Of a stretch of 43,859 nt of DNA, positions 14,928 to 40,809 are shown one piece after another; the first letter of the stretch is position 1, and every line of letters starts with the position of its first letter. The notes below the pieces were generated by a model. That model did not search any database, was not told where the DNA came from, and worked only from the letters and a program-made list of their open reading frames with translations. The translations under genes were made by a program, and so were the position numbers. The stretch is from a virus. Its lineage: Duplodnaviria > Heunggongvirae > Uroviricota > Caudoviricetes. Location of the stretch: positions 1 through 43,859 of IMG/VR virus record IMGVR_UViG_2908567220_000006, one strand, 5' to 3'.

Positions 14928-15004
14928 TGGCGTGGCATGCAGGATTCGAACCTGCGACCAACCGCTTAGAAGGCGGTTGCTCTGTCCAGCTGAGCTAATG
15001 CCAC
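14928..15004 (-). tRNA. tRNA-Arg (anticodon UCU)
   Basis: Manual fold of the reverse complement: 7-bp acceptor stem GTGGCAT/ATGCCAC, D-arm GCTCAGCTGGACAGAGC, anticodon stem ACCGC/GCGGT with loop CTTCTAA, T-arm GCAGGTTCGAATCCTGC, discriminator G plus CCA. Acceptor stem differs from my recollection of host argU. Confidence 0.9.
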
Positions 15005-37382: not shown

Positions 37383-37796
37383 GTGGTCATCATGTCCGCA
37401 TCGCTAACCGCTGATACAATAAATCAGGGGCTTAGCTACGGTGCGCTGGCGGCAGTTATCGCCGGCGTACCTCCTGAAGTGGCGCTGGGATCGCTGGCCG
37501 GGGCGGTAATTTTTGTTACCTCTGCAGTTGAGTATCCGGTCAAGCGCCGCGTTCTCCTGGCGCTACTTAGCTTTCTCTGCGGCCTTCTCTTCTACAAACC
37601 CACAGCATCAATCCTTATCGGCGTTGCCAGCATGATCCCCACCATCACACAGGACTCGTTCGAGCGGGGTATCGTCTACTCCGCCGGCGCGTTCGTTGCG
37701 GCAATTGTCGCAGTGCGGGTCGGGATATGGCTGTATCACCGCTCTGACAATCCGCGCGATTTAATCCCGGGAGGAAAAGACGATGACAGGCCATGA
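37383..37796 (+). CDS. putative holin (multi-TM membrane protein)
   Basis: 137 aa with several hydrophobic helices; first gene of the cassette ending in endolysin and spanins. Confidence 0.5.
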   Translation: MVIMSASLTADTINQGLSYGALAAVIAGVPPEVALGSLAGAVIFVTSAVEYPVKRRVLLALLSFLCGLLFYKPTASILIGVASMIPTITQDSFERGIVYSAGAFVAAIVAVRVGIWLYHRSDNPRDLIPGGKDDDRP

Positions 37797-38088
37797 TCTG
37801 CTGCTTATCGCTAATTCCATCATCTGCGGCGGGATAGCGCTGCGGGTGATGTTCTTCCAGCGCAACGGATCGCGCCATCGCCGCTGGGGCGGGTGGATAG
37901 CCTATTTCCTCATCGTGGCGGCAGCCAGCATCCCGCTGCGCACCGCGTACTCATACCTGTACCACTTCCCTATGACCGCAGATCTTTCTGAGGTCGTTAT
38001 CAATGCTGTGATGTTCGCCGCGGTGCTGAAGACACGCGGCAACGTCGTGCAAATATTCAAGATATCGAGGTCGCAACATGGACATTAA
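37783..38088 (+). CDS. putative holin/antiholin-like membrane protein
   Basis: 101 aa with 2-3 predicted TM helices; overlaps both neighbours. Confidence 0.45.
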
Positions 38089-38707
38089 CGAGTTTCAGAA
38101 AGCTGCCGGCGTTAGCCTGGCGCTGGCCACACGCTGGCATCCGCACATTGTGGCGGCCATGAAAGAGTTTGGCATTATCAAGCCGTTGGATCAGGCGATG
38201 TTTATTGCCCAGGCCGGGCATGAAAGCACTGGATTTACCCAGCTAGTTGAGAGCTTCAACTACAGCGTCAGCGGACTGGCTAACTTCGTTCGGGCTGGGC
38301 GTCTCACTCAGGGACAGGCTAATGCACTGGGTCGCCGTGCTGGTGAACCGCCATTACCACTCGAGCGCCAGCGCGCGATCGCAAATCTGGTGTACAGCAA
38401 ACGCATGGGTAACAATGCTCCTGGCGATGGCTGGAGTTACCGAGGTCGCGGACTTATCCAGATTACCGGCTTGAATAACTATCGTGACTGCGGAAACGGT
38501 CTGAAAGTTGACCTGCTGGAGAATCCTGAACTGCTGGCACAGGACGAATACGCGGCTCGTAGCGCGGCCTGGTTCTTCTCCTGCAAAGGCTGCATGAAGT
38601 ATATCGGCGATATTGCACGTGTAACTCTGATTATCAATGGTGGCAGGAACGGCATTGATGACCGGCGCGCGCGATACATCATTGCCAGTAAGGTGCTGGC
38701 TGTATGA
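38078..38707 (+). CDS. endolysin, glycoside hydrolase family 19 (chitinase-like lysozyme)
   Basis: Motifs [12 protein letters not shown] and [13 protein letters not shown] typical of GH19 endolysins. Confidence 0.8.
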
Positions 38708-39186
38708 TCTGGGCATTCGTAAAAGCATACTGGAAACAGTTGCTTATCGTGGCGATGCTTGCTGTTCTTGCCACATCAGGAGTTGTTGCCTGGAATATAC
38801 ACGGCAGCCGCCAGTACGATGCCGGGTATGCGCAGGCGGTAGAAGACCGCAAAGACGAAGAAGACAAAGTTCGTCAGTACTACGAACAGGAGAAAGTGAC
38901 CAATGAACGTGAAGCGCAGCATAGGATCGATCAGGCGCGCAGTGATGCTCTTGATGCTGCCGCTCGCGCTGGCAGGTTGCAGCAACAGCTCGTTGCCATC
39001 CGTGAGCAGCTCAGGCAGTATAACGCCATTGTCGGCGCTGGGACGTCAGCCGCAGACACCGGAGTTTTGCTTGCCGACGTGCTCAGCAAATCTCTCGAGA
39101 GAAATAGACAACTGGCAGAGTATGCTGACCGGGCAGCCGAAGCCGGAAGAGTCTGCGAAAAACAGTATGACACCCTGACAAGATAG
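38704..39186 (+). CDS. i-spanin (Rz-like)
   Basis: N-terminal TM helix then a charged coiled-coil periplasmic domain; follows the endolysin. Confidence 0.6.
38903..39178 (+). CDS. o-spanin (Rz1-like lipoprotein) embedded in the Rz frame
   Basis: Alternate frame wholly inside the Rz gene; signal peptide with lipobox LALAGC; Pro/Ser-rich mature part. Confidence 0.55.
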   Translation: MNVKRSIGSIRRAVMLLMLPLALAGCSNSSLPSVSSSGSITPLSALGRQPQTPEFCLPTCSANLSREIDNWQSMLTGQPKPEESAKNSMTP

Positions 39187-39360
39187 CATGGCATTTTTCA
39201 TGGTACTGATTTCCGGTGACGGTATATAAAACGGTACTAAAAAAATGAAGTTTTGGAAAAATGTTATCACTCAATTGGTTATGGCTGCCGTAAATAATTG
39301 AGTGGGAATGATTTAACGTCTGGCAACAGCCTGCACGTAAAAGCAGTAAAGTACCTCTAA

Positions 39361-39390
39361 GCCCGCGTAACTGCGGGCTTTTTTGTTTTT
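39361..39390 (+). terminator. intrinsic terminator after lysis cassette
   Basis: GCCCGC-GTAACT-GCGGGC followed by TTTTTTGTTTTT. Confidence 0.65.
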
Positions 39391-39618
39391 GTGTCTGGCA
39401 CTTTCTGGCAGCTGTTAGCAACGGGAAGCACGGTTTTTTCAATGGAATTTTTGATGGTACTCTCTGATTTCGAATTCAGGTTTGAAAAAGTACCATGTGA
39501 TAAATTTCGGTTGAGTTATGGTATTTGTTTTTTTATAACTCAATTAAAAACAGATAGTTAAACAACTTTTCTGAATTTTTTACAACATGGTATTTTTGAT
39601 AAAGGAAAACAATAAACC

Positions 39619-40809
39619 ATGTTGACTGACACCAGGCTGCGTCACCTTAAGCCGAAGGAGAAACTCTATAAAGTTAATGACCGTGATGGTCTGTATGTTG
39701 CGGTCACTCCGGCTGGAACTATTTCATTTCGTTATAACTATTCAATAAACGGAAGACAGGAGACTGTTACTTTTGGCCGCTATGGTGTTGGAGGGATCAC
39801 GCTTGCAGAAGCGCGTGAACGGCTCAATGAAGCCAAAAAAATGGTTGCCAGTGGAATATCGCCTGCGAGGGAAAAAGCCAGAGATAAAGCGCGTATTAAA
39901 GATGCGGAGACTTTTGGTGCGTGGACTGAGAAATGGTTACGCGGTTATCAAATGGCTGAATCGACGCGTGATATGCGGCGTTCGGTATATCAAAGGGAGT
40001 TGAAGTCAAAATTTGCCCAGCAGAAACTTAGTGAGATTACACATGAAGACTTACGCGCATTAACCGATAACATTGTCGAGAGAGGGGCACCAGCGACAGC
40101 TGTACACGCTAGAGAGATTGTATTGCAAGTCTATCGCTGGGCTATTGAGCGCGGTCAGAAGGTGGAGAATCCTGCTGATCTGGTACGGCCTGCAAGCATA
40201 GCGAAATTTGAGCCTCGAGACAGGGCATTGACGCCAGTTGAAATTGGTCTGATGTATCGGTACATGGAACGGGTAGGAACGACGCCATCAATCAGAGCAG
40301 CGGTTAAACTTTTGCTGTTAACGATGGTACGTAAAAGTGAGCTTACTAACGCAACCTGGAACGAGATCAATTTTAGTGAGGCATTATGGACGATACCAAA
40401 GGAAAGGATGAAACGACGTAATCCACATTTGGTTTTTCTTTCCAGACAGGCAATGGATATTATGATTGCTCTCAAAACCTTTGCCGGTAGCTCTGATTTT
40501 ATCCTTCCTTCGCGGTACGATTCCGATGCGCCAATGAGTAGCGCTACTTTAAACCGGGTTTTGACACTGACGTATCGCCTGGCTCAGAAAGAAGGGGAGT
40601 TGTTGCCTAAGTTTGGTCCCCATGACTTACGGCGTACAGCCAGCACCTTGCTACATGAGGCCGGGTACAATACTGACTGGATTGAGAAGAGCCTTGCCCA
40701 TGAACAAAAAGGGGTACGAGCTGTTTATAACAAGGCAGAATATCGTGAGCAGAGGGCTGAGATGCTACAAGATTGGGCGAATATGATTGATGAATGGACT
40801 AGTAAGTAG
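39619..40809 (+). CDS. int: tyrosine integrase (P4-type)
   Basis: 396 aa; P4-like N-terminal arm-binding region (LYKVNDRDGLYVAVTPAGTISFRYNYSINGRQ) and C-terminal catalytic region (HDLRRTAST...Y). Confidence 0.85.
   Translation: MLTDTRLRHLKPKEKLYKVNDRDGLYVAVTPAGTISFRYNYSINGRQETVTFGRYGVGGITLAEARERLNEAKKMVASGISPAREKARDKARIKDAETFGAWTEKWLRGYQMAESTRDMRRSVYQRELKSKFAQQKLSEITHEDLRALTDNIVERGAPATAVHAREIVLQVYRWAIERGQKVENPADLVRPASIAKFEPRDRALTPVEIGLMYRYMERVGTTPSIRAAVKLLLLTMVRKSELTNATWNEINFSEALWTIPKERMKRRNPHLVFLSRQAMDIMIALKTFAGSSDFILPSRYDSDAPMSSATLNRVLTLTYRLAQKEGELLPKFGPHDLRRTASTLLHEAGYNTDWIEKSLAHEQKGVRAVYNKAEYREQRAEMLQDWANMIDEWTSK

Follow-up and report, generated by a model that had tools for sequence, protein, structure and literature searches.

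The lysis region of this phage genome raises a simple question: does the open reading frame that lies inside the Rz gene, in another frame, encode a lipoprotein of its own, or does it stay open for reasons that belong to Rz? The window, by which we mean the whole stretch of DNA that was analysed (43,859 nucleotides, positions 1 to 43,859 of IMG/VR record IMGVR_UViG_2908567220_000006), had been read in an earlier note made from its letters, which described a 91-aa lipoprotein ORF nested in the i-spanin gene and called it an Rz1-type o-spanin. We hold with high confidence that this ORF is a real o-spanin gene, embedded in the +1 frame of the i-spanin gene as the last unit of a holin-holin-endolysin-spanin cassette, in an epsilon15/phiV10-like temperate podophage. 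The features concerned are collected in Table 1.

Table 1. Coordinates of the lysis features in the window, with the basis for each assignment.
Feature	Position	Strand	Basis or detail
Holin-like multi-pass membrane protein, 137 aa, first cassette gene	37383..37796	+	Phage_holin_8 E=2.5e-11; PHROG 198 holin E=1.7e-38
Holin, 101 aa	37783..38088	+	Phage_holin_3_7 E=7.7e-25; PHROG 217 holin E=1.4e-34
Endolysin, glycoside hydrolase family 19 (GH19) type, 209 aa	38078..38707	+	Glyco_hydro_19 E=1.4e-9; PHROG 181 E=1.9e-88
i-spanin (Rz-like, DUF2514), 160 aa, 483 nt	38704..39186	+	DUF2514 E=3.7e-42; PHROG 312
Predicted i-spanin transmembrane segment coding region (residues 14-32)	38743..38799	+	Hydropathy window
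Shine-Dalgarno (SD) AGGAGA for o-spanin	38888..38893	+	GGAG ends 10 nt 5' of ATG
o-spanin (Rz1-like) gene	38903..39178	+	ATG, 91 codons + stop, 276 nt; ORF list
Predicted lipoprotein signal peptide, residues 1-25	38903..38977	+	PROSITE-type lipobox rule
Predicted mature o-spanin, 66 aa from predicted lipidated Cys26	38978..39175	+	Composition, Cys positions
Intrinsic-terminator-like hairpin + T-run, end of lysis operon	39359..39390	+	9-bp stem, 6 G-C pairs, then TTTTTGTTTTT

The placement of the ORF in the earlier note agrees with the ORF list, in which it lies wholly within the i-spanin ORF on the same strand. Its start is offset by 199 nt from the i-spanin start, which puts it in the +1 frame, and its stop comes 8 nt ahead of the i-spanin stop; it thus extends from 0.41 L to 0.98 L, where L is the length of the i-spanin. 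The encoded protein ends ...NSMTP.

Where translation begins is well defined in the window. An in-frame TGA at 38897-38899 shuts the o-spanin frame one codon 5' of the ATG, and position 38903 is therefore the sole full-length start that the window allows. A real gene that starts elsewhere, either at Met15, which would yield a precursor of 77 aa, or at ATGs further 5' in relatives, which would yield longer isoforms, was nevertheless considered, given that in-frame Met codons occur at 14/15 and 18, that one database entry (P0026, 78 aa) is called from an internal Met, and that many relatives carry in-frame ATGs 5' of the MNVK start. The TGA, however, rules out a longer product in the window, and a start at Met15 would lose the basic n-region needed by the signal peptide and would have no conserved SD in front of it. 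Moreover, the GGAG 10 nt 5' of the ATG is invariant, whereas the upstream extensions vary in length and, in 26 of the 56 different sequences compared (see below), contain stops, and their in-frame ATGs are not conserved. We consider such a start very improbable. As a side observation, the +1 frame of Rz in the window is broken by two stops; in many relatives (L001, L002, L021, L025, L035, L037, L051 and L054 among them) it is open for 129-156 codons, far 5' of the conserved Rz1 start.

The N-terminus was judged for a lipoprotein signal by a PROSITE-type lipobox rule. The lipobox that the earlier note had picked out, LALAGC, occupies residues 21-26 (nt 38963-38980), and the elements of the rule are all in place, namely Cys26, two K/R among the first 7 residues and Ser at +2. 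The predicted signal peptide comprises a basic n-region (K4, R5, R11, R12) and a hydrophobic core, with L-A-G before Cys26, and G25 and C26 are found in at least 90% of the aligned homologues. An Asp at +2 is an inner-membrane retention signal for lipoproteins; the +2 residue of the o-spanin is Ser, not Asp, and by its sequence the protein is compatible with the outer membrane.

The mature part, counted from the Cys, is Ser/Pro-rich, with 21% Ser and 12% Pro. It is laid out as a Ser-rich linker followed by a conserved core that contains Cys56 and Cys60. When database homologues down to 52% identity are aligned, the invariant columns are L43, S44, L46, Q49, P50, P53, E54, C56, P58, T59, C60, S61, N63, L64, W71, Q72 and L75. 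The AlphaFold2 model, built on an 18-sequence alignment, is mostly coil with a pLDDT of 56, a low confidence that is expected for a short Ser/Pro-rich lipoprotein; we therefore make no structural claim from it, and the model was left out of fold searching.

An open second frame can also arise by chance. As a null, 20,000 synonymous recodings of the Rz protein were generated, each codon being picked according to the codon usage of the window itself. Of these, 12.7% left all 91 codons open, and in 24.5% a +1 stretch of at least 91 open codons appeared somewhere. Open-frame length was accordingly set aside as weak evidence for a gene, since so many recodings keep the frame open. Indeed, both figures are what one would cite for the view that the +1 ORF is untranslated, a by-product of an Rz coiled-coil composition that avoids +1 stops. 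The same view could draw on the +1 frame of relatives, where open stretches of as many as 156 codons reach well past the gene, and on the annotation by PGAP, which among the RefSeq E. coli matches listed (H21-H32) shows a 'DUF2514 domain-containing protein' and a GH19 endolysin and no o-spanin. Against it, an M-started ORF with a rule-matching lipobox survives in just 1.5% of the recodings; the test errs on the cautious side, since the protein sequence of Rz was held fixed and that sequence is itself a product of co-evolution with the gene inside it.

On sequence grounds, we take conservation, and not the openness of the frame, to be the decisive evidence for the o-spanin gene. The comparison set consisted of 80 related IMG/VR loci together with phiV10, epsilon15 and a Klebsiella prophage (L001-L083), which yielded 56 distinct Rz sequences, all of 483 nt, and 65 distinct endolysin+Rz haplotypes. 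In the +1 frame, every one of the 56 Rz sequences retains MNxK at the start and the lipobox Cys, with LAGC, LVGC and VLAGC as lipobox variants. Likewise, the GGAGAAA of the SD and the ATG of the o-spanin are invariant in 65/65 haplotypes, despite their position in the variable N-terminal half of Rz.

The silent sites of Rz tell the same story against an untranslated ORF. Of the 32 sites in the overlap that are 4-fold degenerate for Rz, 5 vary, with a diversity of 0.006; in the adjacent endolysin gene, 39 of 43 such sites vary and the diversity is 0.194. The difference is roughly 30-fold, and the boundaries of the depleted region match those of Rz1. Thus, third-position diversity in Rz is ~0.20 at offsets 66-165, falls to 0.035 in the bin that holds the Rz1 SD and ATG, stays between 0.014 and 0.086 across the overlap, and is back to 0.197 in the last bin, past the Rz1 stop. 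The Rz-silent sites are almost frozen precisely where Rz1 is encoded, and the second frame is under purifying selection. Even so, variability inside the overlap is highest at the third codon position of Rz, which corresponds to the second of Rz1; of the two proteins, Rz1 is therefore under the looser constraint. The locus is a clean textbook case of dual-coding constraint.

Conservation also reaches well beyond the close relatives. The o-spanin matches PHROG 11621, 'Rz-like spanin', at E=8.4e-40 (residues 5-90 on positions 2-87 of 88), which counts against an untranslated by-product. A tblastn search with the 91-aa protein found the core in 169 phage records and, among the matches listed, all informatively annotated ones fall under an Rz-like spanin, i-spanin or DUF2514 gene. 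Five divergent phages were inspected: Salmonella virus SeLz-2 (Skatevirus), Klebsiella phage RSU-F4K5 (a siphophage), Escherichia phage swi2 (Swiduovirus), Pectobacterium phage CB1 (Schitoviridae) and Salmonella phage CHRF_10034 (Macdonaldcampvirus). Each has a +1-frame ORF in its i-spanin gene with an L-[AS]-G-C lipobox, a Ser/Thr-rich linker and the core P-[ES]-F-C-L-[PE]-[TS]-C-S-x-N-L-S-x-E-I-D-N-W; in CB1 the inner gene extends 22 nt beyond the i-spanin stop and is therefore overlapped rather than embedded. A lipoprotein signal and a frame conserved in relatives were the two points on which the earlier note let its reading hang; the signal is present by the lipobox rule, and the +1 peptide with its lipobox persists in the 56 close relatives and in five divergent genera. 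The silent-site freeze and this deep conservation all but rule out a non-coding ORF that composition happened to produce, and we give it next to no weight.

Domain libraries place the o-spanin in a defined lineage. Nearly all of the homologues found, from 95% down to 58% identity, bear a precomputed match to PF28595, 'RzoQ', a family named for rzoQ of the E. coli K-12 Qin prophage. In our own scan against Pfam and NCBIfam, the o-spanin gave a sub-threshold GerPB match in Pfam alone and none in NCBIfam; the Pfam scan left both the window o-spanin and K-12 RzoQ without a match, and the scanned copy of Pfam seemingly lacks PF28595. By tblastn, the o-spanin is 94.5% identical to its counterpart in TL-2011b, and 86% and 84% identical to those of epsilon15 and SPN1S over 97% of the protein. 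The spanin census groups spanins at an identity of at least 40% over at least 40% of the periplasmic domain (PMC6139136), and by that rule the window o-spanin clusters with epsilon15, SPN1S and TL-2011b, all listed members of the family. Taken together, these similarities assign the o-spanin to the DUF2514/RzoQ ('Bcep176') spanin lineage. A search of the available literature found no experiments on SPN1S/epsilon15-type spanins or on any member of the lineage.

The partner encoded in the other frame is of the matching kind. The DUF2514 match of the i-spanin (PF10721) covers profile positions 1-160 of 161, and PHROG 312, 'Rz-like spanin', is matched at E=2.8e-57. Residues 14-32 form its most hydrophobic 19-aa window (mean KD 2.11). 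The AlphaFold2 model (pLDDT 84.7) consists of helices 2-110 and 116-159 with a break at 111-115; as modelled, the i-spanin would have an N-terminal membrane anchor and an almost fully helical periplasmic domain. It has one periplasmic cysteine, C151.

The genes for the holin-like protein, the holin and the GH19 endolysin lie directly 5' of Rz with overlapping stops and starts, the endolysin stop overlapping the Rz start (ATGA). The first of them is the counterpart of epsilon15 gp23 and PhiV10p27, and the endolysin counterpart in phiV10 and epsilon15 is also annotated as an endolysin. A rho-independent terminator is annotated in both of these phages at the place equivalent to the hairpin of Table 1. 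In passing, we note that two different holin-family genes stand in tandem 5' of the endolysin (37383-38088), with a 14-nt overlap; one of the two may be an antiholin or an accessory protein.

Over the lysis region, identity to the window is ~88% for Klebsiella prophage records, 85.8% for phiV10 and 80.1% for epsilon15. On a larger scale, Escherichia phage EC.W1-9 matches ~63% of window 20000-43859 at 96.5%, and TL-2011b and phiV10 match the same region at ~93% over 35-37%. Because of these matches to EC.W1-9, TL-2011b, phiV10 and epsilon15, the window is classed, by sequence similarity, as an epsilon15/phiV10-like (Uetakevirus) genome.

The resemblance does not run on without a break. Similarity to phiV10, epsilon15 and the Klebsiella prophages ends at ~39317, just 5' of the terminator. 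An integrase gene at 39619-40809 encodes 396 aa with Arm-DNA-bind_3, Phage_int_M and Phage_integrase domains; in phiV10 and epsilon15 the integrase is longer, at 416 aa. Matches at 94.6% that run through the integrase region occur in a small number of E. coli genomes, strain R18 being one. These observations suggest that the attachment/integration module (window 39318-40809) has been swapped. Elsewhere in the window, a tRNA-Arg gene (anticodon TCT) lies at 14928-15004 on the - strand, opposite to most large ORFs.

A spanin pair may be intact in sequence and still be the relic of a defective or cryptic prophage, with no current role in lysis. The distribution of the cassette lends this some plausibility: a search with window 38600-39620 found it, or related cassettes, in 683 of 5426 complete E. 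coli genomes, the K-12 Qin copy sits in a cryptic prophage, and some public copies are damaged, either as chimeras by 1-nt deletions or as a fusion by a ~185-nt deletion (both described below). In the window, however, all five lysis genes are intact, with their starts and stops coupled, and the long match to the EC.W1-9 phage record at 96.5% likewise speaks for a functioning phage rather than a relic. We regard the latter as unlikely, and the reading of the ORF as the o-spanin gene of a temperate phage is retained.

The damaged copies deserve a word of their own. About 15 of the 43 database matches are 157-aa Rz::Rz1 chimeras that carry DUF2514 and RzoQ domains, mostly from Logan assemblies (P0001, P0004, P0006, P0008, P0016, P0017, P0020-P0023, P0029-P0032 and P0042). 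Their junctions are scattered over residues 29-104; fusion by programmed frameshifting was therefore rejected for them, as scattered junctions fit independent 1-nt deletions or assembly errors. A further entry of 91 aa, P0028 (L089 533-808, Logan ERR5056649_518), results from a ~185-nt deletion that joins the Rz anchor to the Rz1 lipobox (...LVAGCSSSS...), and this deletion lies between similar sequences that code for hydrophobic segments. Its locus is without an i-spanin gene, has an extra 74-aa gene between the endolysin gene and P0028, and carries a transposase-family gene downstream. A natural single-gene variant was considered for P0028 and rejected in favour of a damaged copy, given the single Logan contig, the ~185-nt deletion and the adjoining transposase gene; the locus is probably a decaying prophage.

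How the o-spanin would act can be sketched on the lambda Rz/Rz1 paradigm, from which we infer a function in outer-membrane disruption. Thus, the precursor would be exported, lipidated at Cys26 and cleaved, and the Lol pathway would then carry the mature protein to the outer membrane, where it would sit in the inner leaflet. There, its conserved C-terminal core may bind the C-terminal helix of the i-spanin, so that the complex would bridge the periplasm through the peptidoglycan mesh. Periplasmic cysteines are present in both subunits, namely the invariant Cys56 and Cys60 of Rz1 and Cys151 of Rz, and these probably form stabilising disulfides. After release of the GH19 endolysin by the holin and breakdown of the wall, the spanin complexes would be free to collapse, and by fusing or disrupting the inner and outer membranes they would complete lysis.

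As a discovery, the gene has little value, for it is a known, catalogued embedded o-spanin: GenBank annotations of ~2005-2007 and the 2018 spanin census already cover the gene, the nested arrangement and the family. The practical value lies in annotation, the nested o-spanin being absent from the RefSeq records inspected.

Lambda is the reference against which the earlier note had set the architecture, and at that level the likeness is real. The lambda Rz/Rz1 pair is likewise embedded in the +1 frame at the end of a lysis cassette, it likewise combines a small lipoprotein o-spanin with a membrane-anchored helical i-spanin, and in both phages the inner gene begins some 0.4-0.5 of the way along the i-spanin gene. 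The designation 'Rz1-type' thus holds for architecture and, by analogy, for function; as a statement about sequence family it does not. Neither window spanin matches PF06085 or PF03245 at E<=0.1, whereas in the same library lambda Rz1 matches PF06085 at 2.9e-20 and lambda Rz matches PF03245 at 2.6e-54. BLASTP of the o-spanin against lambda Rz1 aligns essentially nothing beyond the signal peptide with its lipobox (25% identity, 25% gaps, E=0.001), and the two Rz proteins align at E=0.063. Homology to lambda Rz1 was accordingly rejected as unsupported beyond the signal peptide.

Several differences accompany this. The mature part in the window is Ser-rich with a C-x-x-x-C pair, as opposed to the poly-proline stretch and single Cys of lambda Rz1, and the o-spanin gene stops 8 nt short of the i-spanin stop, the corresponding distance in lambda being 59 nt. 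Lambda spanins form homodimer disulfides. It is conceivable, if somewhat doubtful, that the present lineage, with its invariant Cys56/Cys60 pair in the putative i-spanin-binding core and the single C-terminal Cys151 of its i-spanin, differs covalently from lambda, through an intramolecular disulfide in the o-spanin or an i-/o-spanin heterodisulfide, and that it may also represent an overprinting independent of lambda Rz1. The precursor of 91 aa is, as the earlier note had remarked, long beside the 60 aa of lambda Rz1; yet it is normal for its own family and falls within the spread of 57-96 aa among the embedded o-spanins in the SpaninDB entries viewed (PMC6139136).

A closer, albeit still distant, comparison is offered by RzpQ/RzoQ (b1553/b4689) of the E. 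coli K-12 Qin cryptic prophage, where a lipoprotein gene is also nested in a DUF2514 i-spanin gene 3' of an endolysin gene. RzoQ and the window o-spanin have the core P-x-x-C-x-P-T-C-S in common, with 37% identity over 38 aa (pairwise E=8e-7); the former is 84 aa long and the latter 91 aa. RzpQ is ~21% identical to the window i-spanin, and the Qin endolysin is annotated as a putative lysozyme of 177 aa, as opposed to the GH19 enzyme of the window. By these sequence comparisons, rzpQ/rzoQ is a curated distant relative with a nested layout alike.

The same nested gene is found in epsilon15 and phiV10, which, with TL-2011b, are of the same genus-level phage type as the window and have the same cassette order. 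It is annotated in phiV10 as PhiV10p30a (AAZ95950.1), a 'putative rz1-like protein' of 276 nt inside PhiV10p30, and in epsilon15 as 'Rz1' (ABK13675.2), also of 276 nt, inside the Rz-like gene. Kongari et al. 2018 (PMC6139136) place epsilon15, phiV10 and TL-2011b in the 15-member 'Bcep176' i-/o-spanin families. The SpaninDB entries for these three phages are marked 'emb', with a 483-nt i-spanin, an offset of 199, an end 8 nt from the i-spanin end and the +1 frame; the inner gene runs from 0.412 L to 0.983 L and encodes a 91-aa precursor with a 66-aa periplasmic part (PMC6139136). The spanin geometry of the window is identical to that of these entries. The PHROG 11621 match, the Rz1 annotations in phiV10 and epsilon15 and the embedded 91-aa SpaninDB entries all bear out the reading of the ORF as an o-spanin. 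The +1 frame 5' of the o-spanin ATG is closed by a TGA in the window and open in phiV10 and epsilon15, and the downstream attachment/integrase module differs from that of phiV10; the o-spanin itself differs from those of phiV10, epsilon15 and TL-2011b by point substitutions only.
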